In this document: positions 1,514 through 57,194 of the stretch, piece after piece
How the letters are laid out: every line of letters starts with the position of its first letter
Position numbering within the stretch: the first letter of the stretch is position 1
The notes under the pieces: generated by a model
The model's database searches: none
Told to the model about the DNA's origin: nothing
The model's input: only the letters and a program-made list of their open reading frames with translations
Position numbers and translations under genes: made by a program
Source of the DNA: a candidate division WOR-3 bacterium
Lineage (GTDB): Bacteria > Hydrothermota > Tepidihabitantia > Tepidihabitantales > Tepidihabitantaceae
Assembly: GCA_016867815.1 (NCBI GenBank)
Contig: VGIR01000003.1
Coordinates: forward strand, 2,495-66,494
Length of the DNA stretch: 64,000 nt
Reading direction: 5' to 3'

Positions 1514-1643
1514 CACCAAGACACCAAGGCACCAAGGTCCGGACTCGGGAAGGCTGCCAGGTAGGTCAGAGTAGCCCGAGCGCAAGCGCACGCTCAAGCA
1601 CCTGCCAGCCACAAGCCACAAGCCACAAGCCTCAAGCCGAAAG
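1514..1643. repeat. heptanucleotide tandem arrays (CACCAAG x3, then CAAGCC-type x6-8) in convergent intergenic spacer
   Basis: aacaccaagacaccaaggcaccaagg and cgcaagcgcacgctcaagcacc...ccacaagccacaagccacaagcctcaagcc read directly. Confidence 0.9.
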
Positions 1644-1691
1644 AGAGAGCGGGAGCTTTCGCTCCCGCAATCCAAAGGCCGCGTCCCGAGA

Positions 1692-2777
1692 TCAGCCGCT
1701 GGCGCGGACGTGGAAGATGTCGCCGTCGTTCACGATCTCATCTTTGCCGGCGAGCCGGACAAGGTTCTGGGCGTTCGCCCGCTTCATGCAGCCGACGGCC
1801 ATGAACGTCTTGTGCGGTATCACTTCGGCACGGACGAAAGTCTCGGCCAGGCGGGTGTGAATGGCTCCGGCCGCATCGCGGGCGCAGGTGTTGCGCCGGA
1901 TGGTCCATGCCTTCACTTCGTCTTCTCCGACGGTCAGGAATGATATCAGGCCGACGTGCTCGTAGACTACCCGTGACAGGCGTTGGATGCCGCTTTCGGT
2001 GAAGCCGTATTCGCGCAGGAAGAGTTCGCGGTCAGTCTCGTCGAACTGGCTGATGTCCGACTCGATCTTGCCCGACAGCTCGATGTAGGCGAATCCGTTT
2101 GCCGAGCACTGCTCTTTGACGCAGGCCTGGTCAGGATAGGACTTGGCGCTGAGCTGGTGTTCGTCGGTATTGACCGCGACGATGATTGGCTTGGCGGTGA
2201 ACAGGCAGTAGGTGCCGAGGGTCTTGGACTCGGCCGGAGTCAACTCCTGGCGGCTGACTGGTTGCTCGTCCTCCAACTGCTCGCGGACTGCGGTCAGGAG
2301 CTTGCGTTCCTTCTGCTCCTCGTCGCTGAGCTTGTGGCGTTTCCGCTCCGTTTCGGCGATCCGCTCGAGCCGATTTTCGACTACCGCGAGGTCGCGCAGC
2401 AGCAGTTCGGTGCGGATGGTGTCGAGCTGGGCAGCCGGCGTGTCGCATTTGGCCGGCCAGGCGACCGCGGGATTGACAAAGGCGCGGACCACGCAGAGCA
2501 GGGCGTCCGAGTTCTGGATGAACTGCATCACCCGGCTCTTCTCGCCGCGGGTCGCTTCCAGGTCGAAGCCGGGCATGTCGGTGAACGTGAGGCTGGCCTG
2601 GGTGACCTTCTTCGGGTTGAAGATGGACGCAAGCTCGTCCACGCGCGGGTCGTGGACCAGCGCTGTGCCGGTCACGCCGTCCTTACGCCGCGTCGCCGGA
2701 TCGAGTTGCATGCCGGTGAGGAGTGAGAAGAGAGTCGTCTTCCCGCTCGCCGACAAGCCGAATACGCCAATCACCAT
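1692..2777 (-). CDS. ychF: ribosome-binding ATPase YchF (Obg-family GTPase with C-terminal TGS domain)
   Basis: N-terminal P-loop GxxxxGKT (GLSASGKTT); length 361 aa; C-terminal TGS-like region. Confidence 0.85.
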   Translation of the reverse strand: MVIGVFGLSASGKTTLFSLLTGMQLDPATRRKDGVTGTALVHDPRVDELASIFNPKKVTQASLTFTDMPGFDLEATRGEKSRVMQFIQNSDALLCVVRAFVNPAVAWPAKCDTPAAQLDTIRTELLLRDLAVVENRLERIAETERKRHKLSDEEQKERKLLTAVREQLEDEQPVSRQELTPAESKTLGTYCLFTAKPIIVAVNTDEHQLSAKSYPDQACVKEQCSANGFAYIELSGKIESDISQFDETDRELFLREYGFTESGIQRLSRVVYEHVGLISFLTVGEDEVKAWTIRRNTCARDAAGAIHTRLAETFVRAEVIPHKTFMAVGCMKRANAQNLVRLAGKDEIVNDGDIFHVRASG

Positions 2778-2899
2778 CTGGAGGGTCTCGCTTTCCTGGG
2801 TACGGTTTTGCCTTTGCAGACTACTGCCCGCCGGGTCCGGTTCCAGTCACGGGCGCAGGCAGAGCGCGGGAAGTATAGCAGAAAGTAGGAAGTGGTCAA

Positions 2900-3142
2900 G
2901 AGGTCGAGAGGTCGAGGGATAGAGGGAGAGAGGGATAGAGGGATAGAGGGATAGAGGGATAGAGTGTTCGGACCCTTGGTTCTCTTCGTGATTTCGTGCT
3001 TTCGTGGCAGACTGGTCTGGGTTCTCCCGGTGCCTTGGTGTCTTGGTGGTTGAGTCGGCATGAGGGATCAAGGGATAGAGGGATCGAGGGAGAGAGGGAC
3101 AAAGGGATAGAGGGACAAAGGGATGGAGGGATAGAGGGATCG
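2900..3142. repeat. two arrays of 9-bp tandem repeat GGGATAGAG (about 7 and 9 units) flanking CTTCGTG and CTTGGTG heptamer mini-arrays
   Basis: gggatagagggagagagggatagagggatagagggatagag at 2919-2966 and gggatcaagggatagagggatcgagggagagagggacaaagggatagag... at 3062-3142. Confidence 0.95.
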
Positions 3143-3279
3143 CTGGGAAGGGTTCCAGGGTTCGAGGGGTCCAGTGGCCGACCCAGCCGGAGGTCGTGGA
3201 CCGGACATGCAGCCGGGTAACGATCCGTCGTTCATCGTTCTTGACCCCAGCGGTCCCTGTCGGACAGTGCGTTCATCGT

Positions 3280-3325
3280 CACTTCTGACTTCTGCATTCT
3301 GGTCTCTGACTTCTGACTTCGTCCC
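3280..3325. repeat. CTTCTGA heptamer tandem array
   Basis: cacttctgacttctgcattctggtctctgacttctgacttcg. Confidence 0.85.
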
Positions 3326-3372: not shown

Positions 3373-3402
3373 CCGGACGATTTCTTGACCGGTGAGCAAA
3401 CG
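3373..3402 (+). promoter_or_regulatory. putative sigma70-like promoter of aspS (TTGACC N16 TAGACT)
   Basis: tcTTGACCggtgagcaaacgcggcTAGACTggcgccATG; short leader. Confidence 0.35.
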
Positions 3403-3418
3403 CGGCTAGACTGGCGCC

Positions 3419-4723
3419 ATGCAGCGTACCTTAGCGGCAGACATCGCCAAGCACATCGGTGAAGAAGTCAAGCTCGTCGGCTGGCTGTTTCAGGTCCGCG
3501 AGCTGGGCTCCATCTCTTTCGTCGTGGTTCGAGACCGTACCGGCACCGCGCAGGCGGTGATTCTCGAACCCGCCAAGCACGACCTTTCGCAACTGAAGCG
3601 CGAGAGCCTGGTCGAGGTGTACGGCACGGTGAAGGCCGAGCCGCAGGCGAAGCGCGGGGCCGAACTCCTGTTCAAGGAAGTCAGAGTGCTGGCCGAGCCG
3701 GTGGCAGAGCTGCCGTTCGAGGTGAACCGCTCCAAGAAGAAGCTGAACCTGAAGATCGACTCGGTGCTCGACCACCGGGCGTTCAGCCTGCGCAACCCGG
3801 AGATAGCGGCGCCGTTCAGGGTGCAGGGAGAGATCGTCCGGACCTTTTCCGACTACTTACGCGGTCTGGGGTTCACCGAGGTGCACACGTCCAAGATCGT
3901 GTCGGCCGGGACCGAAGGCGGGACCGCGCTCTTTCCCATCAAGTACTTCGAGCAGACGGCCTTCCTGGCCCAGAGCCCGCAGTTCTACAAGCAGATGCTG
4001 GTGGGCGCCGGGTTCGAGCGGGTGTTCGAAGTCGGCTTCGTCTACCGGGCTGAGGACCACGCGACCTCGCGCCACATCAATGAGTACCTGTCGCTCGACT
4101 TCGAGATGGGATTCATCGATTCGTACACCGACGTGATTGACGTGGAACGCGGCTTCCTGAGGAAGATGGTCGAGAACATCGGCATGGCCTGCGCGGACGA
4201 GATGGCCTTGCTCAAGGCCGAGTTGCCGAAGACAGGCGACATTCCCGAGATTCGACTCAAGGACGCGCTCGCGATCCTGGCGAAGGACTACAAGCGGGAC
4301 ACCAAGGACATGGTCGACCTCGACCCGGAGGGCGAGCGGCAGATATGCGATTACGCCCTGAAGACGCATGGCAGCGAGTTCGTCTTCATCAGCCGCTACC
4401 CGCGCAAGGCGCGGCCGTTCTACACCATGCCCGACCCGGATGACGAGGAATCCACGCTCGGCTTCGACTGCCTGTTCCGGGGCCTTGAGGTGACGACCGG
4501 GAGCCAGCGCATCCACGACTACAACATGTTGGTGGAGAGTATCAAGCGTATCGGCGGAAACCCGGACAGCTTCAACTTCTACCTGGAGATATTCAGGTAC
4601 GCGATGCCGCCGCACGGCGGGCTGGCCATCGGCGCGGAGCGGCTGACCCAGCAGATTCTGAACCTCGGCAACGTGCGCGAGGCAAGCTTCTTCCCGCGCG
4701 ACCGGTTCCGGCTCACGCCGTAG
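3419..4723 (+). CDS. aspS: aspartate--tRNA ligase, archaeal/type-2 (class IIb; possibly non-discriminating)
   Basis: 434 aa; class II motifs FVYRAEDHATSRHINEY, FRYAMPPHGGLAIGAERL, C-terminal FFPRDRFRLTP closely match archaeal-type AspRS; AsnRS not fully excluded. Confidence 0.8.
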   Translation: MQRTLAADIAKHIGEEVKLVGWLFQVRELGSISFVVVRDRTGTAQAVILEPAKHDLSQLKRESLVEVYGTVKAEPQAKRGAELLFKEVRVLAEPVAELPFEVNRSKKKLNLKIDSVLDHRAFSLRNPEIAAPFRVQGEIVRTFSDYLRGLGFTEVHTSKIVSAGTEGGTALFPIKYFEQTAFLAQSPQFYKQMLVGAGFERVFEVGFVYRAEDHATSRHINEYLSLDFEMGFIDSYTDVIDVERGFLRKMVENIGMACADEMALLKAELPKTGDIPEIRLKDALAILAKDYKRDTKDMVDLDPEGERQICDYALKTHGSEFVFISRYPRKARPFYTMPDPDDEESTLGFDCLFRGLEVTTGSQRIHDYNMLVESIKRIGGNPDSFNFYLEIFRYAMPPHGGLAIGAERLTQQILNLGNVREASFFPRDRFRLTP

Positions 4724-4822
4724 CCGCGTTTCACGCACAACGCACGATACATCACTCCGGAGCGGCTGGGTCGGATTTCGGCGTCAGGCTTCAGGCGTGA
4801 GGCTCCTGCCGCCCGCGCCTGT

Positions 4823-4851
4823 TTGACTCTGTTCGGAGGGCCGTCTAGAAT
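4823..4851 (+). promoter_or_regulatory. putative sigma70-like promoter (TTGACT N17 TAGAAT)
   Basis: gtTTGACTctgttcggagggccgtcTAGAATtg upstream of the secreted peptidase gene. Confidence 0.45.
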
Positions 4852-16349: not shown

Positions 16350-17117
16350 GTGAAGCCCGAACGACTTCAGAAGTACCTTGCATCGGCCGGCGTCGGCTCG
16401 CGCCGTCACTGCGAGGAGTTGATCGAGGCCGGGCGCGTCCGGGTCAACGGAGCGATGGCGAAGCTCGGGCAGTCGGTGACGCCCGGCAAGGACCGGGTTG
16501 AATACCGGGGGAGAGAGGTGAAGCCGGAAGCCGAGAAGGTCGTCGTGGCGGTGAACAAGCCGGCCGGCTACCTGAGCGCGTGTTTCCGGGGTCATGAAGA
16601 AGGCTGGCTGGTGACGGAACTGGTTGACCTGCCGTTTCGGCTCTACCCGGTGGGCAGACTCGATCGGGATTCCGAGGGTTTGCTGTTGCTGACGAATGAC
16701 GGGGACATCGCTCTGGAACTCACCCATCCTCGTTACGGCAAGGAGAAGGAGTACGAAGTCGAACTCGACCGGCCGGCCGGTCCGGAGTTGTGCGACCGGC
16801 TGCAGAAGAACGTGCAGTTGGCCGACGGTCCGGCACGGGCGGTTCGCGCCAGTCTGGTCGGGCCGGGCCGGCTCAGCGTTGTGCTTGCGGAAGGGCGCAA
16901 GCGGCAGCTGCGCAGGATGCTCGAGGCACTGGGGTGCAGGGTCGTGCGCCTGCGGCGGGTGCGGATTGCCGGTCTGCGTCTCGGCGAGCTGCCACTGGGC
17001 AAGTGGCGGAGACTGAGCGCTCGGGAGGTGACGGAGAAGCTGGGGCGAGGTTCGGAAGAACGCAGAAGTCAAAAGGCAGAAGTCAGAACGCAGAACCCGG
17101 AAGCGAAGAAGCCGTGA
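16350..17117 (+). CDS. pseudouridine synthase, RsuA/RluB family with N-terminal S4 domain
   Basis: S4 domain (RLQKYLASAGVGSRRHCEELIEAGRVRVNG), catalytic motif GRLDRDSEGLLLLTNDG. Confidence 0.85.
   Translation: MKPERLQKYLASAGVGSRRHCEELIEAGRVRVNGAMAKLGQSVTPGKDRVEYRGREVKPEAEKVVVAVNKPAGYLSACFRGHEEGWLVTELVDLPFRLYPVGRLDRDSEGLLLLTNDGDIALELTHPRYGKEKEYEVELDRPAGPELCDRLQKNVQLADGPARAVRASLVGPGRLSVVLAEGRKRQLRRMLEALGCRVVRLRRVRIAGLRLGELPLGKWRRLSAREVTEKLGRGSEERRSQKAEVRTQNPEAKKP
17054..17100. repeat. CAGAAGT/CAGAACG heptamer array (reverse complement of CTTCTGA family) inside 3' end of pseudouridine synthase CDS
   Basis: cgcagaagtcaaaaggcagaagtcagaacgcagaacc translated as RRSQKAEVRTQNPE tail. Confidence 0.8.
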
Positions 17118-19342: not shown

Positions 19343-19408
19343 AACGCTATACGCCTCACCTACGGCGCTCAACGCCAGATATCGGCTTCCGGCGTCGAAC
19401 ATCAAGCG

Positions 19409-20089
19409 TCATGCGTCACGCGTCCCGCCGCAGGCCCGGACACACAGCCCGCAGATGTACTGGCTGACGTAGCGTTTGCTCTGGAACTCCTTGAGCATTG
19501 CGAAGCAGTCCAGATGCTTGAACTCGGTCTGAGTCTCACCGATGGCCTTGGCAGGGCAGGCCGTGATACAGGCACGGCACGAGCCACAACCGTTCTCAAG
19601 CGGGTGGTCGGGTTCGAGATCGAGGTCAGTCAGGATCGTTACCAGTCTGACTTGCGAGCCGAACCGCGGGGTGACAAGCAGGTTGTTGCGGCCGAGCCAG
19701 CCTAGCCCGGCTCCGACAGCGACACGCTTGTGCGACAGATGGCCCCGTTGGTTCTGCCAGTCAACGAGCTGAGATGCGGCGACGGGCAGCGCCAATGCTC
19801 CCAGGCTTTCAATCAGCGCGGCGAGGTCCAGCCCGAGCCGGTCCAGCGCGAAGTTGACCTGTCGGTAGTGGTGCTCGTATAGCTGGTTTGGATGGTCTTC
19901 GAGCGTTCCGAGAACTGCCGGGGACAAGTGTAGCGCGATGCTGATGGCATTCGGCAGGTCCCGAGTCGTCTTCTCCGGCAGGAGGAAGTCGTCGGTCTTG
20001 ATGTCATTGAGCCGGCAGACGCCGAAGCCAACCGCTCCCCGACTCTTGCACAGCTCCGCGAGTCCCTCTTTGGTCTCTTGTGGTATCAC
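19409..20089 (-). CDS. 4Fe-4S cluster protein, epoxyqueuosine reductase (QueG)-like C-terminal domain
   Basis: [16 protein letters not shown] and second Cys cluster CGLCVRACG; 226 aa is shorter than canonical QueG; overlaps mnmG by 4 nt. Confidence 0.55.
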
Positions 20090-22038
20090 TTGGGTCCCTT
20101 CAGGTAGGCGAGGAGCGCGAACACGGCTGCCGGCGTGATGCCCGTCATGCGCTGCGCCATACCAACTGAGGCGGGCCGATTGCGGGCCAGTCTCTCTCGG
20201 ACTTCGTTTGAAAGTCCGGGTACGCGACCGAAGTCGAGTCTCTCGGGGATCGCGATGGACTCCAGTTCTGCAAACTGACCGAGCTGGCGCTTCATCCGTT
20301 CGATGTAGCCCTCGTATTTCACCTCAAGCTCCACCAGTTCGACAACCTGGTTGCCGAACTGACCGCCATTCGCCATTTGGGCCAGGTCAGTCCATGTCAC
20401 TTCGGGTCTGCGCAGGAGCTCAATGGCTGGGACCGATTCGGCAATCGGCGTTGTGCCGAGCGCCTTGAGTTTCCTGTTGGCTCTGGGCGTGGCCCTGATA
20501 CGGGCCGAGGTGAGCCACTTCGTCGCCTCGTCACACTGGTGCTGTTTCTCCTGAATGCGGCTGTACTGCTTCCCCGTGAGCAGGCCGAGTTCGTATGCGC
20601 GCGGACCGAGGCGCAGGTCGGCGTTGTCTTCACGCAGGAGCAGGCGATACTCGACTCGGGCAGTGAACATCCGGTACGGCTCGTCCGTGCCCTTGGTGAC
20701 GAGGTCGTCAATCATCACCCCGATGTACGAGTCGGCGCGGGTCAGAACGAGTGGCGGTTTCTCCAGCACGCGCAGCGCGGCATTGGCGCCCGCGACAAGC
20801 CCCTGGGCCGCGGCTTCCTCGTACCCGGTGGTGCCGTTTATCTGTCCGGCAAAGTAGAGATTGCGGATGGGGCGGGTTTCGAGTGTAGGGTAGAGCTGGG
20901 TCGGGTCAGAATAGTCGTGCTCGATGGCGTAACCCGGCCTGAGCATCCGGCAATCCTCAAGCCCTTTGATAGAATGGAGCATCCGAAGCTGCAGGTGGAC
21001 CGGTAGGCTCGTCGAGATGCCGTTCGGGTAGCATTCGACCGTGTCCGTGCCTTCGGGTTCGATGAAGATGTGATGACGGTCGCGGTCAGAGAACTTCACG
21101 ACCTTGTCCTCAATGGATGGGCAGTACCTGACGCCTTGCCCCTTGATGACGCCCGAGTAGAGCGGAGACTGCTTCAGGCCCGCACGGACGATGCGGTGCG
21201 TAGTCGGGTTCGTATAGGTGACGTAGCAGCTTGTCTGGTTCTGCGGTGGAGCGTCGGTCCAGTCCGAGAACGGAACCGGCGGCTCATCACCATCCTGCCG
21301 GATCATAGCCTTCAGGTCCAGCGACCGCATGTCCAGCCGCGCCGGTGTACCGGTCTTGAACCGACCGATACTGAATCCCAGTTCGCGCAGGTTCGCGCCC
21401 AGCCTCTGTGCCGGCGCCTCGCCCAGGCGGCCGGCCGGAAAGCTGGTGAGCCCGATATGGACGAGACCGTTCAGGAACGTGCCCGGCGCGAGCACGACTG
21501 TCTTCGCCCGCAACTGCTCTCCCAGCTCCGTCTCGACCCCCACGCACGTCCTGCCCTTCACCAATACTCTCGCCACCGTGCCTTGGTGCAAAAGAGGTCT
21601 GCCCGCCCCTTTGGTTCGGTTCGTCCTTCTGTGTGTCTCCGGCGCTCTGGATTCTGGACTCTCGTCTCTGAATTCTGGACTATCCTCTCCCGATGTCCCT
21701 TCCAGCAGTTGCTTGACCAACCTGCGATACAGCTGTCTATCCACCTGCGCCCGCGACGACCGCACCGCCCGTCCCTTGCTCGTGTTCAGTTGGCGGAAGT
21801 GGATGCCGGCTCTGTCAGTCAGTTGCCCCATCGCACCGCCCATGGCGTCCAGTTCGCGCACCAGTTGTCCCTTGCCGATGCCGCCGACCGCGGGGTTGCA
21901 TGACATCAGGCCGATGGTGTCGAGGTTCTGGGTTACGAGCAGAGTCGAGCAGCCCATCCGGGCCGCGGCCAGCGTCGCCTCGACGCCGGCATGCCCGGCC
22001 CCGACTACTACCACGTCATACGTTTCCTGGTGCTTCAA
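20086..22038 (-). CDS. mnmG: tRNA uridine 5-carboxymethylaminomethyl modification enzyme MnmG (GidA)
   Basis: FAD-binding GAGHAGVEA, MnmG conserved blocks throughout; contains about 30-aa low-complexity insertion encoded by in-frame heptamer array at 21646-21688. Confidence 0.9.
21646..21688. repeat. TCTGGAC-type heptamer tandem array (6 units, 42 nt) in frame inside mnmG
   Basis: tctggattctggactctcgtctctgaattctggactatcctc encodes [14 protein letters not shown] on minus strand, absent from canonical MnmG. Confidence 0.8.
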
Positions 22039-22128: not shown

Positions 22129-22449
22129 ATGACGTCCAAAGTCGGACAGGTGCTTGCCGAACTCCGCGCTAGACTGCGAGAGCTGTACGGCGAACGGCTG
22201 GTGAGGCTTGTGCTGTTCGGCTCGCAGGCACGCGGCGACGCCCGGCCGGATTCAGACATAGACGTAGTGGTCGTGCTTCGAGGAGACGTCGATGTCGAGG
22301 TGGAGCGGCGGCGTGTGCTGCCGATCACGGCTGAGTTGTCGCTGGAGCACAATGTCGTAATCCTTTGCGTGTACCTGTCGGAGCGTCGCTTCGGTCAGGA
22401 ACAGAGTCTGCTGCTCCGTAACGTTCGAACGGAAGGCATCGCGGTGTGA
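22129..22449 (+). CDS. nucleotidyltransferase (MNT-type antitoxin of HEPN/MNT module)
   Basis: GS...D...D motif LFGSQARGDARPDSDIDV typical of minimal nucleotidyltransferases. Confidence 0.75.
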   Translation: MTSKVGQVLAELRARLRELYGERLVRLVLFGSQARGDARPDSDIDVVVVLRGDVDVEVERRRVLPITAELSLEHNVVILCVYLSERRFGQEQSLLLRNVRTEGIAV

Positions 22450-22841
22450 ACGAACAGCAGAGAGCGCTGCTGGCGAAGGCGCGTGAGAGCCTGGACGTTG
22501 CCCGCGAGATTGACGCTCGCGGGAGCCATGGATTTGCCGCGTCGCGTGCCTACTACGCCATGTTCTACGTGGTCGAAGCGCTGCTGCTCGACGACGGGCT
22601 TGAGTATGGCAGTCACTCGGCGCTCATCGCTGCCTTCGGCGAGAGATTCCAGAAACCAGGTCGTGTCCCCGCGGGTTTCCATCGGATGTTGCTGGACGCG
22701 GCGGAATGTCGGCAACTCGGTGACTACGAGGTCAACGTTGAGGTCAGCGCAGGCATGGCGGGCGAGCAGATAGCGAACGCTCAGCGGTTCGTCGACCTCG
22801 CGCAGGGAATGCTCGGCTCGTCAACCGAGAACGCGCGCTAG
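22446..22841 (+). CDS. HEPN domain protein (toxin partner of MNT)
   Basis: 4-nt overlap with MNT gene; 131 aa helical protein with Rx4-6H-like HEPN signature region. Confidence 0.7.
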   Translation: MNEQQRALLAKARESLDVAREIDARGSHGFAASRAYYAMFYVVEALLLDDGLEYGSHSALIAAFGERFQKPGRVPAGFHRMLLDAAECRQLGDYEVNVEVSAGMAGEQIANAQRFVDLAQGMLGSSTENAR

Positions 22842-22847
22842 AACGGG

Positions 22848-22975
22848 CCAGCGCCGCCTCGACGCCGGCATGCCCGGCCCCGACCACGATCACGTCATAT
22901 GCCTGCTGCATCGTCCCGCTGATTCTAGATGTTCAGACATGCGAGTCAAACCGGCGACGGCGGAGACGCCCAAGG
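22848..22975. repeat. degenerate duplicate copy 1 of mnmG promoter + first ~26 codons
   Basis: reverse strand encodes [22 protein letters not shown] preceded by TTGACT N16 TAGAAT, matching the mnmG start region. Confidence 0.85.
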
Positions 22976-23001
22976 CCCCAAGTGTCTCCGGCGGCCTTCG
23001 C

Positions 23002-23029
23002 TTTGACTTGACTCCATGACGCAGTATGA
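23002..23029 (+). promoter_or_regulatory. putative promoter of cassette 2 (TTGACT N16 TATGAT)
   Basis: tTTGACTtgactccatgacgcagTATGATgtcc. Confidence 0.5.
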
Positions 23030-23044
23030 TGTCCGCAGCGAATC

Positions 23045-29110: not shown

Positions 29111-29164
29111 TATCCGGAAGGTCGTTCTCGTCGAGTGACGTCGGGCTCTGGAAAGCATCGAGCA

Positions 29165-31273: not shown

Positions 31274-31310
31274 AGCTTGAGGCTTGGGGCTTGAGGCCTC
31301 CGTTGCTTGC
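31267..31310. repeat. GGCTTGA heptamer array (inverted relative to 30863-30895)
   Basis: gcttgaagcttgaggcttggggcttgaggcc. Confidence 0.9.
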
Positions 31311-37654: not shown

Positions 37655-37682
37655 TTGACTCCCGGGAGGATGTTGCTACAAT
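37655..37682 (+). promoter_or_regulatory. putative promoter of RRM gene (TTGACT N16 TACAAT) with about 165-nt structured leader
   Basis: ctcTTGACTcccgggaggatgttgcTACAATtatg; hairpin GGTTGCCaaggggaccGGCAACC in leader. Confidence 0.5.
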
Positions 37683-37847: not shown

Positions 37848-38171
37848 ATGGGTACGCGCATATTCGTAGGGAATCTTCCCTTCAGCGCAACCGAGACGCA
37901 GCTCAACGAGCTGTTCAGTCAGCATGGCGAAGTGACTTCGGTCAGCATCGTGAAGGACAAGTTCACGGACAGGTCACGGGGATTTGCGTTCGTCGAGATG
38001 ACCGCTGCCGATGCAGCGACCGCGGCGATTGCAGCCCTCAACTCGTACCAGATGGAAGGCCGGCCGCTTACCGTCAACGTGGCGCGCGAGCGCACCGAAG
38101 GTTCGCGTCCGCCCCGCGGCAACGATCGTCGTTCGCCGCGTAGCGGCGGCTTCTCCGGCAACCGCTGGTAG
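37848..38171 (+). CDS. RNA-binding protein, RRM (RNP-1/RNP-2) type with Gly/Arg-rich tail
   Basis: RNP-2 IFVGNL, RNP-1 RGFAFVEM. Confidence 0.85.
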   Translation: MGTRIFVGNLPFSATETQLNELFSQHGEVTSVSIVKDKFTDRSRGFAFVEMTAADAATAAIAALNSYQMEGRPLTVNVARERTEGSRPPRGNDRRSPRSGGFSGNRW

Positions 38172-38263: not shown

Positions 38264-38791
38264 ATGAGTGAGCGATTCCCCCAGCTTGCCGGACTGAGTC
38301 GTGAAGATCTGGTCGGACTGATTGAGGATGCAGCGAGGAACTGGCTGGCGCACGACGGACTCTGGTTCCAGGCGGTCGAGCACGCCCACGGAATGGATGC
38401 CGCCATCAAGGCCGACACCGAGGCCTGGCGCGGCTTCACGGTCATTGAGGCGAAGCGTATCATGGAGCGGCACGGAATCGCTCCCGGCGGTGGCATTCCG
38501 GCGTTGGTCAAAGCACTGTCGTTGCGTCTCTATGCCTTCCTCAACAAGCAGGATGTGGTCGAGCAGAGCGAGAAACGGGTTGTGTTCCGGATGCTGGATT
38601 GCCGGGTTCAGTCGGCGCGCAAGAGGAAAGGCCTCGCCGATTTTCCCTGCAAGCCGGTCGGGCTGGTGGAGTACGAATGGTTCGCGAAGACGATTGACCC
38701 GAGGATCGAGACGCGCTGCATTTGCTGCCCGCCGGACGGGCACCCGGATGACGTTTGGTGTGCCTGGGAGTTCAGGCTCAAGGCGGAATGA
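38264..38791 (+). CDS. hypothetical protein
   Basis: 176 aa starting MSERFPQLAG; Cys-rich C-terminus (CICCPPDGH); no confident family. Confidence 0.45.
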   Translation: MSERFPQLAGLSREDLVGLIEDAARNWLAHDGLWFQAVEHAHGMDAAIKADTEAWRGFTVIEAKRIMERHGIAPGGGIPALVKALSLRLYAFLNKQDVVEQSEKRVVFRMLDCRVQSARKRKGLADFPCKPVGLVEYEWFAKTIDPRIETRCICCPPDGHPDDVWCAWEFRLKAE

Positions 38792-38826
38792 CGAAGGACG
38801 AAGTCCGAATGACGAATGACCGAAAG
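38786..38826. repeat. GACGAAG/GACGAAT heptamer array
   Basis: gaatgacgaaggacgaagtccgaatgacgaatgaccgaaag. Confidence 0.85.
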
Positions 38827-49280: not shown

Positions 49281-51542
49281 ATGAACAGACTGGTGGCTGT
49301 TCTGCTGGGCGCGGCCGTTGCGACTGCGGCATTCGGCCGTGAGCCGAGGTTAGAGGAGCATCTCGCGGTGCGGGAGAGTCTGTCGCGGGTGCATCCGAGG
49401 ATGAGGGCGAGGTGGCTCAAGGAGCGCGGGGTTGAAGACCCGTACTACACGAGCGTCAGGATGCCGGCGACTGAGAGTTCGGGACTCGAGCTAATCGGAC
49501 GTTGGTCATACGGGCCGTCGTATGACGTTGACGGCAGGACCACTCCGAGCGAGACGCTCGTTGCGCTGGCGCGCGGCTCGGGCGTGAGCCTGCTCAGGTT
49601 CTCAAGGCGGGATTCCCTTTCAATCGAGCTTCTCTCGGACATCAATGCCGAGGGGCTGATGTGCCGCGTGAAGGTCGCGGGCACGCTTCTCTACGTCGGC
49701 TCGCGGAAGGGGCTTGAAATCTACAACATCGCCGACGAGCAGAATCCGATGAGGCTCTCGTGGACGCCACTGCCGCTCAACGACTTTGCCCTTCAGGATT
49801 CGCTCGTTTACACCATCAGCGGCTACTATTCCGACGGTGGCGATGACGACTCGTTTCGTATCTACAACGTCTCGAATCCAGCCAATCCGGTCTTCCGCGG
49901 AGCCTGCCGCGACTCAGGCTACCTGGTCTCGGTGGCAGGCAACACGGCGTTCATTGGCGACCGTTGGGGTCTCTACGTCATCGACGTCACCAATCCCGCG
50001 AGTCCGCACCGAATCGGCTCCTGGGGTAGCGCAATCGAGCAGGTGGAGGTCAGAGGGCATCTCTGCTACGTCACGACTTTCAACCCGAACGTGCCGGGCG
50101 ACATCACGTTCCACGTCCTTGACGTTGCCGTTCCGTCGCTGCCATACCAGATTGGCTCGCTGGACTCTGCCGGCGGCAACGATGTCTTCCTCGTCGATAC
50201 GCTGGCGTTTGGAGCAGGCGAGAGCGACTTCAACAGGATGACTATCGTGTCGATAGCAGATTCGACCAGACCCCGCCTGCTAGGCTCTGCCGGAAGGCCC
50301 GGCTGGGGCTATGGCGTCTGGACCAACGGGCTAGCCCAGACTGCCTTCGTTGGTTCCCACTGGACGGGCTTGCAGATATATGACATCGGGAACACGTCGC
50401 TGCCGGTTCGCGACACCTTCCTGCTGGATGCCGACCAAGCCTTGGACGTCTACATCGACAACGACAGGGCCTACGTGGCGAACCAGATGTCCGGACTGAA
50501 GATACTCGACGTCACCGACCCGGCGAGGCCCACCACTGCTGGTTCCTATGACACGGCCGGGCAGAGGCCGTTCATGAGCTCGGTAGTCGCGCGCGACTCT
50601 CTCGCGTTCGTGGATTGGTACGCGGTGCCCGTCTTCAGGGTGATGGAGGTAAGCGATCCATCGCGCCCTTTGATGCTCGGTGGGGTCGACGTGTTCAATC
50701 CGCCCGAGGACATGGTCCTGCGTGACAGCTTCGTTTACTGCGCCGAAATGAACCGCTTCCAGATTGTCAACGTCGCCCGGCCAAGAGAGCCGGTGCTGGT
50801 GGGGAGCTGCAACACGCAGGAGCAAGCGTATGGTCTGTGCGTCGCAGATTCGCTGGCATACGTGGCTAACTACCCGTTTGCCATCATCAACGTGAAGCAA
50901 CCATCGAATCCAAGTGTCGTCGGCACGATTTCCCGCGGTGCGTGGAATGGGACGGTTCGCGACACGTTTCTGTTCCTGTCATCGGGGAGCATTCTTGTCT
51001 ACAGCGTCGCCGACCCAAGCCAACCTCGGCTGCTGGACTCGCTCAGCGTCGGGGCAATCACGTTTTGGGTCGAGGCGGTCGGCTCGCTGCTGTACACCAA
51101 CAACACCGATGGCGTAAGAGTGGTAGACGCAAGCGACGTTCACAACATGCGGGTCCGTGGCTATGCGACTCTTCCATACTCAGTAGGAAGGTTGAGCTAC
51201 GCGTCGCCGCACCTTTATGTCGCGTGCGGGGAGGCCGGTGTTTGCATCTTCGAGTCAACACAGGTTGCCGTCAGCGAAGAACGACACGCCGTTCCGAGAG
51301 GTGGAGGGCTGTTCGTCAAGCCCAATCCGGCTAGGGGCGTAGCCTTGCTCCTGGGAGCGCAGGGTCTCTCGTATCCCGTTGTCGTCCGAGATGTTGCCGG
51401 GAGGGTCGTGCCCCGCGCAGTCGCAAGCCACGAGACCAACGGCGGTTTGACGCTCGACCTGACGGGCGTCCCACCCGGAGTGTACTTTGTCGAGGTTAAG
51501 ACAAGAGAAGAGGCAGCAAGAGTCAAGTTCGTAAGACAATAG
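49281..51542 (+). CDS. secreted LVIVD-repeat beta-propeller protein with T9SS C-terminal sorting domain
   Basis: signal peptide; repeated ...Y.A.G..GL.I.DV[ST]NP..P motifs; tail ...FVKPNPARG...PPGVYFVEVKTREEAARVKFVRQ. Confidence 0.7.
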   Translation: MNRLVAVLLGAAVATAAFGREPRLEEHLAVRESLSRVHPRMRARWLKERGVEDPYYTSVRMPATESSGLELIGRWSYGPSYDVDGRTTPSETLVALARGSGVSLLRFSRRDSLSIELLSDINAEGLMCRVKVAGTLLYVGSRKGLEIYNIADEQNPMRLSWTPLPLNDFALQDSLVYTISGYYSDGGDDDSFRIYNVSNPANPVFRGACRDSGYLVSVAGNTAFIGDRWGLYVIDVTNPASPHRIGSWGSAIEQVEVRGHLCYVTTFNPNVPGDITFHVLDVAVPSLPYQIGSLDSAGGNDVFLVDTLAFGAGESDFNRMTIVSIADSTRPRLLGSAGRPGWGYGVWTNGLAQTAFVGSHWTGLQIYDIGNTSLPVRDTFLLDADQALDVYIDNDRAYVANQMSGLKILDVTDPARPTTAGSYDTAGQRPFMSSVVARDSLAFVDWYAVPVFRVMEVSDPSRPLMLGGVDVFNPPEDMVLRDSFVYCAEMNRFQIVNVARPREPVLVGSCNTQEQAYGLCVADSLAYVANYPFAIINVKQPSNPSVVGTISRGAWNGTVRDTFLFLSSGSILVYSVADPSQPRLLDSLSVGAITFWVEAVGSLLYTNNTDGVRVVDASDVHNMRVRGYATLPYSVGRLSYASPHLYVACGEAGVCIFESTQVAVSEERHAVPRGGGLFVKPNPARGVALLLGAQGLSYPVVVRDVAGRVVPRAVASHETNGGLTLDLTGVPPGVYFVEVKTREEAARVKFVRQ

Positions 51543-51548
51543 GAAGAA

Positions 51549-53855
51549 GTGATGAAGGGAAGCACGTCGAAACTAGTCGTCGTGCTGCTGGTTGCGTTCG
51601 GCTCCACGATGGCGCTCGTCCGCGCCTTCCACACCGAACCAGTGAGCGTGGCGCTGTCGGGCTGGACTGGCACGATGCCGCCGAACAACTACGTGAGTCA
51701 AGTACTAACGATCAACTTCGATGAGCTGGATAGCACGGCGGGTGCTTACTGTGAACTGTTTGCGGGCACGCAGTCCGGAGGCGGGCCATACCACGTCTCG
51801 GTCAAAACGTATCCGGGCAGCGCTGAGGTCGCAAGTGCCAGCCAAGACGGGCACGTGGACCACAAGTGGGTCCGGTTCAATCTCAATGTGCTGCATCCCG
51901 AATCAATCGTGAAGGGCAAGAAACTGGAGTTCCGGTTCACCCGAGGCGTTATGGTCCCCGGGGAGAGCTTTCAGTTCTATTATGACAGCGTGTGCGGATA
52001 CAACTACGGCTTCATGATAGCGCCGACTCTGCAATCCGTGCCGGTGACGGCCGGACTGGCGATGAGGGTGTATGGACGGATGAAGCCGGTCAGCGACGTC
52101 TGGCGAGCCTGCCATGACCACGGAGATGACCCACCCTTTGGCAGCGATAGCGCTCTGTCGGCCCTGGTGAAGGCCAAGTCCATGGGCGTGAAGTGGCTCA
52201 GAGATGACTTCCTGTGTTGGGGCTCGTGGGATAGCCCGGAAAGCCTCAGAGGCAAGATCAAGTCGATCTACAATCGTTACGACAGCATGGGGTTCAACAT
52301 GGTCGGCATTCTTTGCTACGGAAGTGACGACTCGACGAAGAGCAGCGGCCCGCCGGGCTCCGCCGGTTCTTGGGGCAAGTACCCGCCGCGCAACCTGTTC
52401 GCCGATGTGCACAGTGACACCAACTGGTGGGCAGGATACTGCCGGAGCATCATGGAGAACCTTCCCTTGGTGAAATACTGGGAGGTCTTCCCTGAGGCAA
52501 ATGCGGAGTGGTACTGGAAGGACCCGGACATCGCCTACTACCAGGGCCGCAGCGGCCTGTGTTGGGACACGATCGATACGCCCATTGAGCGATGCAGCCT
52601 CTATGTGCGGATGTGCGTCATTGCCGAGAGCGTTGCTCACGAGTCGGGAGGCGGACGGAAGATTATCGGAGGAGCGCCTTGGCGGCTGCGGGATCCCTGG
52701 TGGGTAGACGGAGACACCACGTGCTGCCCGGGCGTGATCTGGCTTGAACACGTGTTTGAGTTGGCCGAGCGCGCCTACGGGGGCATGCAGAACTGCTTAG
52801 ACATCGTGTCAGTCCATCCATACATGTGGACGGATTCGGTGGGTTGTCCGAACCGCTTTTCGGAAGACGAATTCACTATTTGCCTCGACACGGCGCGCCG
52901 GGCCATGCGCGAGGCCGGGCATCCGGACATGGAACTGTGGGCAACCGAGTACGGCTGGCCCCGGTGGAGGCAGCTCATGCCGGACAGCCTCCTGACGGAT
53001 ACACTCGTTCAGGCCGACAACATCTGCAAGTTCTACACCTCAGCGATAGCGCGGCAGGCCGACCCGCGGGGAGGCTATGATAGAGCGACCCACTATGAGC
53101 TGACCAGCCTACACCATCCCGATGCTGATAACCAAGGTTTCGGTCTTCTTGATAGAGAACCAAGTCAGCATCTCATGCCGCACGGTTGGGCATTCACGCA
53201 GGAGTCCTTTCTCACCGGCAAGCGGCTCAACGGGCGGGTCATAACCGGTGACACGGCGGTTGACGACCACACTCGGGTGTATGAGTTCGAAGACACGACG
53301 GCGTTGAAGAAACGGACGTGGGTATGCTGGCAGGACGAGGCCGTAGCGGCCTACACGCCGGTACCGGTGCGGAACGACACGGTCGATACGGTGGCGCTCG
53401 CCTACAACGGGTCGCCGCCGGCCGACGAGAAGGATGCTGAGCAGTCCGGCTGGCTGCACATTGCCCTGGATCCGCGGCCGGCATTCGTGATGGAGAAAAC
53501 CGTCGCCAGTCGCCCGGACCTGGTTGTGGACAGCGTACGGTACTTCCAGCCACCGGACACGATTGCCGTGCGGGCCTGGGTCACTAACAGCGGCAATCGC
53601 TCAACGCCTCTTCAGCAACCGGGGGAACAGCCGTTCCCGACTTGGGCGGTGTTGTATGCGAACGGTGACTCCATAGCCCAGGTGGTCTACACGGGTTCTA
53701 TCGCGGTAAGTGAGCAAGTCTTGTTCGAGTTCGGGCGCGGCGCTGTCCAGATGCCACAGACGGCCCTTCTCGCGGTCAGGGTCAACCCGGGCCAGAGCTA
53801 CGTCGAGCTCGGGACCGGTGACAACAGGGGATACCGACTGAAGCCCCAGCCGTAG
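51549..53855 (+). CDS. secreted glycoside hydrolase-like protein (TIM-barrel, GH5/GH39-like nucleophile ATEYGWP)
   Basis: signal peptide; ELWATEYGWP resembles the [ST]E[YF]G nucleophile motif of clan GH-A enzymes. Confidence 0.55.
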   Translation: MMKGSTSKLVVVLLVAFGSTMALVRAFHTEPVSVALSGWTGTMPPNNYVSQVLTINFDELDSTAGAYCELFAGTQSGGGPYHVSVKTYPGSAEVASASQDGHVDHKWVRFNLNVLHPESIVKGKKLEFRFTRGVMVPGESFQFYYDSVCGYNYGFMIAPTLQSVPVTAGLAMRVYGRMKPVSDVWRACHDHGDDPPFGSDSALSALVKAKSMGVKWLRDDFLCWGSWDSPESLRGKIKSIYNRYDSMGFNMVGILCYGSDDSTKSSGPPGSAGSWGKYPPRNLFADVHSDTNWWAGYCRSIMENLPLVKYWEVFPEANAEWYWKDPDIAYYQGRSGLCWDTIDTPIERCSLYVRMCVIAESVAHESGGGRKIIGGAPWRLRDPWWVDGDTTCCPGVIWLEHVFELAERAYGGMQNCLDIVSVHPYMWTDSVGCPNRFSEDEFTICLDTARRAMREAGHPDMELWATEYGWPRWRQLMPDSLLTDTLVQADNICKFYTSAIARQADPRGGYDRATHYELTSLHHPDADNQGFGLLDREPSQHLMPHGWAFTQESFLTGKRLNGRVITGDTAVDDHTRVYEFEDTTALKKRTWVCWQDEAVAAYTPVPVRNDTVDTVALAYNGSPPADEKDAEQSGWLHIALDPRPAFVMEKTVASRPDLVVDSVRYFQPPDTIAVRAWVTNSGNRSTPLQQPGEQPFPTWAVLYANGDSIAQVVYTGSIAVSEQVLFEFGRGAVQMPQTALLAVRVNPGQSYVELGTGDNRGYRLKPQP

Positions 53856-53898
53856 GCGCAGCGCGCGTGGCTTGCGCTTGAACTTGGGCTTGCGCTAG
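53855..53898. repeat. GCTTGCG-type heptamer array
   Basis: gcgcgtggcttgcgcttgaacttgggcttgcgc. Confidence 0.85.
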
Positions 53899-55421: not shown

Positions 55422-55593
55422 GGGGCGGATTATACAAGCTCACCTCGGCGAGTCAAACCAGCGGAGGTAGACCGTGCATCACGACAGAGACGCCACAAAG
55501 AGAACGCAGGCTAGACCGCCAAGGACGCCAAGGTCTAAAGCGAGCAACCACGGATGAATGCTGATGGACACAGATGGGTTTGGGTCCAGGCCG

Positions 55594-55622
55594 GAGCTTG
55601 TGCTTGAGTTCGGGCTTGCGCC
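55594..55622. repeat. GCTTG-type heptamer array
   Basis: ggagcttgtgcttgagttcgggcttgcgc. Confidence 0.8.
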
Positions 55623-55625
55623 GGA

Positions 55626-57083
55626 TCAGCGCTGCAGGACGACGCGTGCGGTGGCGTGCTCACCAGAGATTTCGCAGCGGATGAAGTAGGCGCCGGCGGG
55701 CAAGTCCGAAGTGGAAAGGGGAAATGACGAAGTCGAGACCTCACGCGAGAGAACCATTCGACCCTGACTGTCGTACATGCGCAGCGTAAGGGGCTTGGAG
55801 CTTGAGGTCGTGGGCGTGAAGCTGACTCTCGTCGCTCCACGGCACGGGTTCGGCTCGCAGGTGAGGGAGAGCGCGGGGGCCCGAGTTGGATTTGCCTTCG
55901 GCTCTGCTACCGCGACGTTGCCCAGCGAATCGGTCTTGATGAGGTAGACGTCATTCTCGACTACGCCGAACGACCGTGTGAGGCCGGTGACAACATAGCC
56001 GCCATCGGCGGTCTGCTGGACCGAACGACCTTCGTCGTAGGGCCCGTCGCCGAAGGTCCTTGTCCACATCGCGCTGCCGTCGGCCCCGGTCTTGATGAGC
56101 CATGCATCGGATGGATATGAACCGTTAGAGGCGGTCAGGCCGCCGACGATGTAGCCGCCATCGGTGGTCTGCTGGACCGAGAAGCCTTGGTCCACGCTCC
56201 GTCCGCCAAAGGTCCTCGTCCACTGCGTATCGCCGCGCGCGTCGGTCTTGATCAGGTAGACATCGCTGCTCTCTGCGCCAAAGGAGGTAGTGGGGGCCAC
56301 GATGATGTAGCCGGTGTCAGTGGTCTGCTGGATGGAACGGCCTCCTTCGCTGCCTGTGCTGCCGTAGGTCCTGGTCCACAGTGTGTCGCCGCCGGCGTCA
56401 GTCTTGACCAAGTACACGTCGTAGCTACTCGGAGAGCGGGCGTTGCCTGCGATGATGTAGCCGTCGTCGACTGTCTGCTGGACCGAGTAGCCGTTGTCGT
56501 TGCCCGTGCCGCCATAGGTTCTGGTCCACATTGTGTCGCCGTGAATGTCGGTCTTTACGAGGTAGACATCGGCCTGTCCCATGCCAAAGGATCTCGTGTA
56601 TCCAGTGATGATGCAGCCGCCGTCGGCAGTCACTTGGACAGAAGGACCACAGTCGTTGGAGTCGCCGCCGAAGGTCTTAGTCCAGAGCGTGTCGCCGTTG
56701 GAGTTGGTCCTAATGAGGTAGACGTCCTCGTTGCCCGCACCGAAGGAGGATGTCTTTCCTGAGATGATGTAGCCGCTATCGGTCGTCTGTCGGACGGAGA
56801 AGCCAAAGTCGTTCGAGTCGCCGCCGAAGGTCCTAGTCCAGAGCGTGTCGCCGAGGGAGTCGGTCTTGATGAGGTATACGTCTGTGTTGCTTCCCTCGAA
56901 GATGGAGGTTTGTCCAGCAATGATGTAGCCGCCGTCGGCGGTCTGTCGGACCGAGAAGCCGCGGTCGTCGCCTATTCCGCCGTAGGTGCGCTGGAAGGTG
57001 ATTTGGGCGGGGAGGAATGAGGGCAAGAGGATTGCGGCCAAGGCGGCCAGGGCCAGAGCGGAAGAGAACCGGTTACGATACAT
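55626..57083 (-). CDS. secreted repeat protein (about 10 copies of a ~47-aa TFGG...DVYLIKTD..GDTLWT repeat) with T9SS C-terminal sorting domain
   Basis: signal peptide starting MYRNRFSSALALAA; tail ...LRMYDSQGRMV...GAYFIRCEISGEHATARVVLQR. Confidence 0.7.
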   Translation of the reverse strand: MYRNRFSSALALAALAAILLPSFLPAQITFQRTYGGIGDDRGFSVRQTADGGYIIAGQTSIFEGSNTDVYLIKTDSLGDTLWTRTFGGDSNDFGFSVRQTTDSGYIISGKTSSFGAGNEDVYLIRTNSNGDTLWTKTFGGDSNDCGPSVQVTADGGCIITGYTRSFGMGQADVYLVKTDIHGDTMWTRTYGGTGNDNGYSVQQTVDDGYIIAGNARSPSSYDVYLVKTDAGGDTLWTRTYGSTGSEGGRSIQQTTDTGYIIVAPTTSFGAESSDVYLIKTDARGDTQWTRTFGGRSVDQGFSVQQTTDGGYIVGGLTASNGSYPSDAWLIKTGADGSAMWTRTFGDGPYDEGRSVQQTADGGYVVTGLTRSFGVVENDVYLIKTDSLGNVAVAEPKANPTRAPALSLTCEPNPCRGATRVSFTPTTSSSKPLTLRMYDSQGRMVLSREVSTSSFPLSTSDLPAGAYFIRCEISGEHATARVVLQR

Positions 57084-57194
57084 GACGACCTCCTGAGACC
57101 ATTTCGTGAGCGTCTGAGATGATAGGCTCGGGGCTGGGCTTGTCAAATGCGCGGGCGCGAACCTACGGTCGTGGGTTGCCGCGGAGGTTGATAC

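Follow-up and report, generated by a model that had tools for sequence, protein, structure and literature searches.

Tandem arrays of heptamer units have been reported from bacteria since 1990 (Mazel) and a general excess of them since 2007 (Mrazek), and no origin or function for them has been accepted (cited in PMC4692102). The heptamer-biased long simple sequence repeats (SSRs), which include the short tandemly repeated repetitive (STRR) sequences of cyanobacteria, GGGAATC of Xanthomonas, and GGGGA(C/T)T of Nostoc, consist of 7-nt tandem units, from a few up to about 10 copies at each of many scattered, mostly intergenic loci, some of them as inverted pairs (PMC4692102). The TAACTGA repeats of Beggiatoaceae, some cyanobacteria, and Bacteroidetes form 2-6-unit heptamer arrays at more than 100 intergenic sites, show 7-nt-step indels between strains, and are patchy across phyla (PMC4679880). 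They represent one exact heptamer, strongly oriented and located just upstream of start codons. Tandem heptamers are also part of an rRNA intervening sequence (IVS). The IVS of Coxiella burnetii is 428 nt long, has a 28-bp terminal stem that is cut by RNase III, and carries two to three tandem GACAGAT heptamers just before the start of S23p, with the 5' cut at the first repeat; the number of these repeats varies between Coxiella strains (PMC4990558). In this study, we analyzed the short tandem arrays of a 64-kb stretch of DNA (the window) from a candidate division WOR-3 bacterium (contig VGIR01000003.1) and compared them with related and unrelated loci.

The arrays of the window are a known, unexplained kind of repeat in a new host and with new unit families. 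As in the SSR and STRR arrays, 7-nt tandem units occur in a few to about 10 copies at many dispersed, mostly intergenic loci, with some inverted pairs. Distinct from them are the WOR-3 host, the units (CAAGC(C)N, CAGAAG, CACCAAGG, and GAGGGATA), and the mixing of periods 6, 7, and 8. In contrast to the TAACTGA repeats, there are many unit families, located mostly just after stop codons or at junctions and with no strict orientation. The new twist is threefold, namely in-frame copies in conserved enzymes, a design of core plus variable spacer, and an operon cassette of the IVS type whose arms are heptamer arrays. We see an even chance that these are STRR-like, heptamer-biased arrays that grew by unit-wise copying and survived in permissive spots, a minority of them acting as arms of RNA duplexes. 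Arrays would be born and resized one unit at a time by slippage-type copying errors. Selection confines them to permissive places, namely promoter gaps, stop-terminator stretches, operon gaps, coding ends, and enzyme surface loops. Most would have no dedicated role as terminator or switch. A subset would have been taken over as RNA duplex arms, most clearly in the stem of the cassette, which carries a PF05635 gene.

Tandem Repeats Finder was run on the window, with 40 second-order Markov shuffles as the control. The window contained 57 rows of all periods. Fourteen had period 7, compared with a mean of 1.55 (maximum 5) in the shuffles; six had period 6 (0.6 in the shuffles) and eight had period 8 (2.2 in the shuffles). 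Rows of periods 6-8 held 2.5-9.9 copies, with unit matches of 63-96% within arrays, and merging of overlapping rows yielded 24 imperfect arrays of period 6-8. An initial annotation of this DNA had counted at least 15 heptamer arrays and named a whole-genome comparison with shuffled sequence as the test that could refute it. The excess was real, at about 9-fold for period 7 at the scale of the window; the strict heptamer unit did not hold, since periods 6, 7, and 8 are mixed. Against unrelated metagenomic loci the period-7 excess was only about 1.6-fold (21.9 versus 13.6 rows per 100 kb), and period 7 was the commonest short period in the window, in its relatives, and in the unrelated loci.

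Array midpoints were intergenic in 15 of 24 cases, although 89% of the window is coding and 11% non-coding, and the median distance from array to gene boundary was 87 nt (permutation p=4e-4). The annotated intervals all proved to hold arrays of the families assigned to them, and the view of a dispersed, non-random population, mostly at gene 3' ends or between genes, was upheld, yet several arrays are inside coding sequence. A few unit families recur, often on both sides of one gene. Flanking of single genes on both sides, also claimed before, is frequent; rhaA, however, has an array on one side only, and the gene labeled xylA encodes only a xylose-isomerase-like TIM barrel. Head-to-tail units of about 7 nt, at least three copies, an excess, and boundary placement are the class features of heptamer-biased long SSR/STRR-type arrays, and all were found here; the arrays do not form an undescribed family, as had been supposed, because such repeats are on record (PMC4692102, PMC4679880). 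Rfam at gathering thresholds gave no family match anywhere in the window, which contains no rRNA. Single arrays are direct repeats without self-complementarity, and hence not repetitive extragenic palindromic or bacterial interspersed mosaic elements (REP/BIME) or miniature inverted-repeat transposable elements (MITE). The strict STRR units of heterocystous cyanobacteria are CCCCAGT, TTGGTCA, and CAACAGT. These are not the units of the window, which are CAAGCCN, ACTTCTG, CACCAAGG, GAGGGATA, and others.

The unit comprises a 4-5-nt core and a 1-4-nt spacer; therefore, hexamers, heptamers, and octamers are mixed within one array. The cores are CAAGC, CAGAAG/CTTCTG, CCAAGG, AGGGA, and ACGAA. Two unit positions, usually adjacent, took 81% of the within-array mismatches, compared with 70% expected (p=0.0005); the share was 86% in arrays of other phyla. 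Three or four different bases occur at each variable position, and spacer length differs as well, a pattern not predicted by exact-copy slippage followed by uniform decay.

Five kinds of placement were distinguished: between divergent promoters, from stop codon to terminator, in operon gaps or after stops, at coding-sequence ends, and in-frame inside domains. The first is seen upstream of ychF. Promoters were predicted for ychF (TTGACC-16-TATACT, minus strand, 2899 to 2872) and for the Asp/Asn-tRNA synthetase gene (TTGACC-16-TAGACT, 3385-3412), and the arrays at 2894-3320 (GAGGGATA, TTCGTGA, GGTGCCTT, and ACTTCTG) occupy the stretch bounded by the two divergent -35 boxes, at 2899 and 3385. On the plus strand, octamer arrays of GGTCGAGA and then GAGGGATA (2894-2964), the first units of which overlap the predicted ychF -35 box, are followed by 2.8 copies of the octamer TTCGTGAT of the TTCGTGA family (2985-3006) and by an octamer array of GGTGCCTT (3029-3048). 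Further on are 9.9 copies of GAGGGATA and 3.2 copies of AGGGTTCC (3062-3174) and, 5' of the synthetase -35 box, 5.7 copies of the heptamer ACTTCTG (CTTCTGA; 3281-3320). In relatives both predicted promoters are kept, while the DNA that separates them is assembled anew from these unit families, in differing numbers. The relative L138 has five units of the family of the 3062-3174 array at the same place, the 3281-3320 site holds CAGAA-type arrays in L129 and L138, and 16 units of the GATCCCTC family in the window compare with 5 in L138.

The stop-to-terminator placement is found on the other side of ychF. A CACCAAGA/CACCAAGG octamer array (1514-1537, plus strand) starts 10 nt 3' of the stop codon of an ABC-2 permease gene. 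It is followed by a CAAGC(C)N array of about nine units (1580-1643, plus strand), located between this stop codon and the ychF terminator hairpin; the site has 2-7 units in L129, L130, and L133 (2-9 with the window included). The intrinsic terminator of ychF, GCGGGAGC-GAAA-GCTCCCGC followed by TCTCTCTTTC (1649-1668, minus strand), is separate from the arrays and is kept in the same three relatives. The CACCAAGG array at 1514-1533 perfectly complements its inverted partner at 3029-3048 over 20 nt, so that the pair brackets ychF. This bracket is not conserved in relatives, and no functional role is claimed for it.

Termination or attenuation, a role raised in the initial annotation, is difficult to reconcile with this region. 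Many arrays do lie at gene 3' ends, and complementary pairs can form hairpins. However, single arrays lack self-complementarity, no match to a hairpin with T-run overlaps an array, and ychF has its own conserved hairpin and T-run beside its array. Arrays also lie upstream of promoters and are translated inside coding sequence. Their presence between divergent promoters and in-frame inside domains is incompatible with an obligatory terminator role, and we regard intrinsic terminators or attenuators as the nature of the arrays as next to negligible in probability.

Two features of these transcripts were observed in passing. The predicted -10 box of the synthetase gene ends six bases 5' of the ATG (3385-3421, plus strand), an arrangement kept in relatives; therefore, the mRNA is probably leaderless. 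The 5' leader of ychF (2778-2871, minus strand) is conserved, and a stem CUCUGCCUGC...GCGGGCAG is kept in five relatives, with two pairs changed on both sides and no Rfam family match. Two other sequences recur upstream of different genes, a dispersed element that repeats about every 10 nt (AACCACAGATGAACACAGATGAACGCAGAT and variants) and a twofold CCTTGGCGT motif; the sites are at 55520-55585 in the window, upstream of ychF in L129, L132, and L138, and at 3850-3950 in L239.

CAAGC arrays begin 0-10 nt past the stop codon, on the sense strand, at the ABC-2, rhaA, tryptophanase-like, and type IX secretion system (T9SS) genes. At rhaA, a CAAGCC array (35560-35617) and then a CACTGGAC octamer array (together 35560-35666, plus strand) directly follow the stop codon and lie at or before the start of the GH106 gene; this junction holds an AGCCCA array in L003. 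The array at 53855-53898 (minus strand; GCTTG on the plus strand) follows directly after the tryptophanase-like stop codon and is read on the gene strand, and that at 55594-55622 (minus strand; likewise GCTTG on the plus strand) lies 4 nt after the stop codon of a gene for a T9SS-tailed protein. The tryptophanase-like 3' array is matched at 25 of 27 nt in L238 and has five units in L239, and the downstream gene differs in each.

These 3' arrays bear on the possibility that the arrays are cis-acting RNA platforms, bound by a single-strand RNA-binding protein or Rho, that set mRNA 3' ends, stability, and processing. Such platforms would account for a conserved core with a spacer free in sequence and length, for the sense-strand position of the CAAGC arrays just after stop codons, and for a tryptophanase-like 3' array kept despite different neighbor genes. 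A 6-8-nt unit also fits the footprint of a single-strand binder better than a face of double-stranded DNA; the window encodes an RRM protein (37848-38171), one candidate binder, and Rho would be another, acting on C-rich, G-poor arrays. Nevertheless, orientation relative to transcription follows no strict rule (15 sense, 9 antisense, and 3 ambiguous; not significant, with many cases non-independent), the largest arrays lie upstream of both divergent predicted promoters, some arrays are translated inside genes, and the many unrelated units would each need a reader of their own. We consider RNA platforms unlikely, although a serious candidate. The narrower idea that CAAGC arrays are Rho-utilization sites, always on the sense strand, was dropped, given 15 sense versus 9 antisense arrays.

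The RRM-type protein (37848-38171, plus strand) is 107 aa long, with RNP2 (IFVGNL), RNP1 (RGFAFVEM), and an Arg/Gly-rich tail, and a separate promoter-like site for its gene lies at 37655-37682. The protein could be a reader of arrays of single-stranded motifs.

Arrays inside coding sequence were found in mnmG, in the GH106 gene, and in the tails of the xylose-isomerase-like and rluA-like genes. They keep the reading frame in every relative, using the stop-free strand. In mnmG, an in-frame insertion of about 34 codons (21595-21696, minus strand) includes a TCCAGAA/TCCAGAG heptamer array (21645-21689) and sits where E. coli MnmG (chain 9hip_C) has about 5 residues. The length of MnmG ranges over 619-708 aa in close relatives because two hypervariable sites are filled with translated heptamers and palindromic elements. 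A CAGAAGT-type heptamer array (17057-17096, plus strand) is translated as the C-terminal tail of the rluA-like pseudouridine synthase, and the orthologous site carries arrays in L003 and L005. A CAAGCC/CAAGC array (36657-36721, plus strand) is in-frame inside the GH106 domain, read as ...QQQAPSHKPQAGARKAQAQAQAQAVQ... / ...APSHKPQAGARKAQAQAQAQ..., and GH106 of L003 carries arrays too.

Palindromic elements of Rickettsia and other small repeats are tolerated as in-frame insertions in surface loops of conserved proteins. Similar to these, the MnmG inserts are present or absent and variable in length among relatives; in contrast to them, the inserts of the window are tandem heptamers, and palindromic in-frame inserts occur in relatives (site 2 of L003). 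The tandem repeats of Borgs, archaeal extrachromosomal elements, lie both between and inside genes, where they add low-complexity peptide segments, and are reported to be rapidly evolving and recently formed (PMC9879509). Compared with these repeats, the arrays of the window share the placement and the added peptides; they differ in their imperfect 6-8-nt units, in their location on a bacterial chromosome, and in the lack of length differences between same-population consensuses.

The palindromic elements were recorded separately. One of about 66 nt (...AAAATGGGGACAGTCCCC...ACAGTCCCCATTTTC...) occurs at L003:11695-11832 (MnmG site 2) and, 3' of ychF, at L133:11083-11346. It is in-frame in the MnmG of relatives, where it is translated as KNGDSPPERLRPTRRGTVPIF, and the peptide recurs at two MnmG sites, which differ from one relative to another. 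A second element is translated as FGVRAAPGCRLSGKAGASLPHSK in relatives. Both look like small mobile hairpin elements that invade coding sequence. As for the GH106 ORF (679 aa), it starts inside stop-free arrays (region 35544-35700), and homology to solved structures starts only at about 35685; the true start may be a TTG at about 35650. In relatives as well, gene callers extend GH106 through the arrays.

The array sequences were reproducible. Two contigs of the Joint Genome Institute (JGI) from other samples matched the window at 100% identity, one across 21.9 kb and one across 13.5 kb, and relatives assembled independently by JGI and the European Nucleotide Archive (ENA) agreed without gaps in the arrays. 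Therefore, the arrays are not assembly artifacts. At the consensus level, no array length differences were found in the 22-kb, 13-kb, 22-kb, and eight 2-5-kb independently assembled same-population contigs, and L130 and L131 differ only at an unrelated variable end. Changes of unit number, the check for slippage proposed in the initial annotation, were seen only at species-level distance. Unit number drifts between species, with no sign of switching.

Contingency regulation, in which slippage changes the unit number and thereby switches neighbor genes, was also among the initial suggestions. Units not divisible by three near gene starts or ends are its classical substrate, and unit number does differ between species-level relatives and between Coxiella strains. 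However, the units are imperfect (63-96% matches), independently assembled same-population contigs are identical in array length, in-gene arrays keep frame in every relative, and many arrays follow stop codons, where a length change cannot shift any frame. With respect to frame and promoter spacing, most arrays lie after stops or keep frame, and one abuts the predicted ychF -35 box. We judge contingency loci very improbable.

The distribution of the arrays was then compared between lineages. The nearest named homologs of MnmG and of the tryptophanase-like protein belong to candidate division WOR-3. Syntenic close relatives (MnmG 77-86% identical to that of the window) had 37.4 period-7 rows per 100 kb, more distant WOR-3 loci (MnmG 67%) had 5.2, and one distant WOR-3 locus (56% G+C) had none in 22 kb. 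A scan for the CAAGCC(N) pattern CAAGCCNCAAGCCNCAAGCC, with one genome per species, gave at least 120 loci, compared with about 17 matches by chance on our own arithmetic, which assumes equal base frequencies and is not composition-matched. The loci listed include Planctomycetota, Acidobacteriota, Deltaproteobacteria, Pseudomonas, Wallbacteria, and WOR-3, and the arrays are not lineage-specific, contrary to the initial annotation. In several of the listed 8-kb loci, heptamer arrays with many kinds of unit are densely spaced, and complementary arrays often lie side by side; Planctomycetota, Acidobacteriota, and Deltaproteobacteria have such heptamer-rich loci.

A cassette of about 430 nt lies in the rhamnose operon, between the xylose-isomerase-like (AP_endonuc_2) gene and the first FGGY kinase gene. 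Its cargo (30917-31273, plus strand, 118 codons) is a PF05635 gene ('23S rRNA intervening sequence protein', 'four helix bundle', S23p; 108.6 bits, E=2.3e-31, cut-off 33.8). The 5' arm is a CAAGCC(N) array (30863-30895, plus strand) that is translated as the tail of the xylose-isomerase-like protein, and the 3' arm is a complementary GCTTG(N) array (31267-31310, plus strand). The predicted duplex of 30863-30895 with 31267-31297 has an energy of -63 kcal/mol. When the 461-nt transcript was folded, a stem of about 40 bp appeared in both the minimum-energy and the centroid structures; it is made of 5-6-bp helices split by mismatches at the variable spacer positions.

The cassette is present in the window and in L005 and absent in L003, where the stop codon lies within a few bases of the next start. 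No target-site duplication was found at the junctions when the filled and empty sites were compared. L005, L209, L211, and L212-L219 share this layout at protein identities as low as 66%, with differing unit details, and five lineages retain the arms, which persist in L005, L209, L211, and L212 despite about 30% protein divergence. Arm identity of the window to L005 or L212 is 85-97%, compared with 54-61% at third codon positions of the cassette gene and both neighbors; the arms are therefore constrained. The gene preceding the cassette in L209 is a cellulase gene and not the xylose-isomerase-like one, suggesting that the cassette moved or the neighborhood was rearranged.

Of the features that define an IVS, three of five were found: a PF05635 ORF, an element of about 0.4-0.8 kb with complementary stem termini, and sporadic presence. 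Location in a 23S rRNA loop (helix 9, 25, or 45) was not, as the cassette lies between two protein-coding genes; thus, it is best termed IVS-like in working rather than a strict member. The likeness to the Coxiella IVS extends to a length of about 430 nt, the PF05635 ORF, complementary long-stem termini, tandem heptamers upstream of the ORF, and sporadic presence (PMC4990558), whereas the window cassette differs in its place between the protein genes of an operon and in its 5' arm, which is also translated. By analogy with Coxiella, RNase III would cut the stem, which would excise the cassette RNA and split the operon transcript. Reading the cassette protein as the bAvd protein of a diversity-generating retroelement was rejected, since bAvd scored 30.7 bits, below the cut-off of 40, and the scanned ORFs had no reverse-transcriptase match.

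Similar arrangements were found on plasmids. The cassette protein was searched with tblastn against 72,556 plasmids, which gave 25 records, nearly all from Nostocales and other cyanobacteria and one from Azospirillum; 18 were examined. Arrays of 6-8 nt adjoin the PF05635 gene in 18 of 18 loci. Several kb of surrounding sequence were available for 12 loci; of their 31 arrays, 20 fell in the 2.5% of sequence beside the gene (binomial p=6e-25). At least 11 loci have complementary arrays on the two sides. Upstream and downstream units are, respectively, GTAGGGA (8 copies) and TCCCTAC (5 copies) in Nostoc edaphicum, TCAGGAG/TCAGAAG and CTCCTGA/CTTCTGA in Nostoc punctiforme, Aulosira, and Trichormus, AGGGTGT and CTACACC in Calothrix, AGGAGATA and ATCTCCTA in Picosynechococcus, and AAAAGGG and CTTTTCC in Geminocystis. 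Flanks of the same orientation occur in a few loci (Pseudanabaena, Stanieria, Nostoc PCC 7120, and HK-01). The plasmid genes sit in tight operon gaps, such as cas6/cas4, cmr2/cmr3, nrdB/nrdA, and parA/parB, and among conjugation genes. The Azospirillum gene lies inside a 23S rRNA gene, with GAGGACG and GTCTTCT arrays as arms, and is therefore a classical intervening sequence. A literature search of limited scope found no paper that generalizes array-flanked S23p genes or reports such cassettes outside rRNA.

Some of these cassettes lie in CRISPR-cas operons (L221, L229, and L230), in cas6/cas4 of Pseudanabaena and Anabaena sp. 90 and in cmr2/cmr3 of Picosynechococcus. In Anabaena sp. 90, the cassette gene is also preceded, at a distance of about 100 nt, by a 273-nt array with 20 copies of a 14-nt unit.

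The recurrence of array-flanked PF05635 genes in WOR-3, in 17 cyanobacterial plasmid loci, in the Azospirillum rRNA IVS, and in Coxiella raises the question of whether arrays and cassettes are one selfish system, with solo arrays as decayed or miniature copies or as products of PF05635-dependent copying. In line with this, nearby solo arrays share the unit family of the local cassette in the window (29049, 35560, and 36657) and in L209, L211, L230, L233, L234, and L236. In other phyla, ORF-less pairs of adjacent complementary arrays are frequent (53 of 283 arrays), and the plasmid PF05635 matches are almost all from Nostocales, the classic STRR hosts. Against it, one PF05635 gene stands beside about 24 arrays in the window. 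A hidden Markov model (HMM) from 120 homologs, which may miss distant subfamilies, found no PF05635 remnants beside solo arrays of the window and its relatives and no PF05635 genes in the 120 listed CAAGCC loci of other phyla or in 80 ychF loci. Moreover, unit sequences differ between cassettes, which leaves no conserved recognition site, and no transposase or mobility mechanism is known for IVS-family elements. We hold a single selfish system to be quite improbable. The related proposal of one widespread IVS family that extends beyond 23S rRNA into WOR-3 and cyanobacterial operons, with solo arrays, STRRs included, as its footprints or PF05635-dependent copies, is doubtful.

In the WOR-3 set, 58 of 66 arrays had no complementary partner within 600 nt. 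Together with the lack of PF05635 remnants, this indicates that most arrays are not explicable as cassette arms. The solo arrays are not plain junk, judging from the conserved tryptophanase-like 3' array and the core-plus-spacer mismatch pattern. Recombination or mobility, a further suggestion of the initial annotation, found partial support: a cassette that some relatives have and others lack is bracketed by one complementary pair, and two arrays lie at synteny breakpoints. The latter are the CAAGC arrays at both junctions of the genes that the window has in addition to L238, among them the array at 55594-55622. Compared with L238 (tryptophanase-like protein 87% identical), the window has extra genes on both sides of the tryptophanase-like gene, namely the T9SS-tailed gene at 55626-57146 on one side and, on the other, an LVIVD-repeat gene and a gene for a 768-aa protein (49281-53855).

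The reading that the arrays are STRR-like repeats, grown by unit-wise copying and retained in permissive spots, has several points against it. Simple slippage copies whole units and leaves a conserved core with spacers variable in letter and length unexplained. Some solo arrays, such as the tryptophanase-like 3' array compared with L238, are conserved beyond the near-neutral level, pointing to function or biased regeneration. Purely local seeding also fails to predict that a few unit families turn up again at unlinked loci and in other phyla. A stem role can apply to a minority only, as 88% of arrays are partnerless within 600 nt, and both RNase III cutting and the promoter assignments are inferred. 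For the minority that form duplex arms, the comparison of arms with codon positions shows constraint on the sequence; their biochemistry, RNase III cleavage included, would follow the Coxiella model. The probability left beyond the readings discussed here falls to something not considered.

Further arrays of the window are three in number between or at the ends of genes and one upstream of the rhamnose operon. GGCGTCA (3.4 copies, 4780-4803, plus strand) lies between the stop codon of the synthetase gene and the next predicted promoter (4823-4851), TCAAGCG (3.3 copies, 19402-19424, plus strand) between convergent genes, and GAATGAC/GAAGGAC (5 copies, 38786-38820, plus strand) at the DUF6125/radC junction. 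A CAAGC array with a 1-4-nt spacer (about nine units, 29049-29110, plus strand) lies 5' of the predicted rhamnose-operon promoter. Besides the rhamnose operon, the window contains bamA, clpC, and genes of several proteins with T9SS sorting tails. The T9SS-tailed protein gene at 55626-57146 has a 156-nt tandem repeat (2.4 copies, 77% matches, 56601-56968) that presumably reflects a recurring domain of the protein. Next to mnmG, at 22129-23729 (plus strand), two toxin-antitoxin pairs of the nucleotidyltransferase/HEPN type adjoin each other, one of NTP_transf_2 with HEPN and one of Polbeta with HepT. Two paralogous ORFs (29105-29584 and 57300-57824, minus strand) have repeats with periods of 12, 24, and 36 nt (rows 29298-29446 and 57353-57482) and encode arginine-rich periodic peptides (...AIRRAxRRAxRRTA...) with the common N-terminal 'QFPICPP' and no Pfam match; one of the two has an internal stop codon.

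The findings add a new host phylum and new unit families to the heptamer-biased repeats, together with arrays carried in-frame inside essential enzymes such as MnmG. They also add the core-spacer build, constancy of length between assemblies of the same population, and the conservation of some arrays beyond synonymous sites. For annotators, stop-free arrays inflate ORFs, as in the 679-aa GH106 ORF and the 18-aa tail of the xylose-isomerase-like protein. Through the cassette, STRR-type repeats become linked to rRNA intervening sequences and to the very common 'four helix bundle protein' genes, all three of them poorly understood. If arrays and cassettes were one IVS-family system, the heptamer bias of bacterial repeats, long without an explanation, would follow from a single mechanism.

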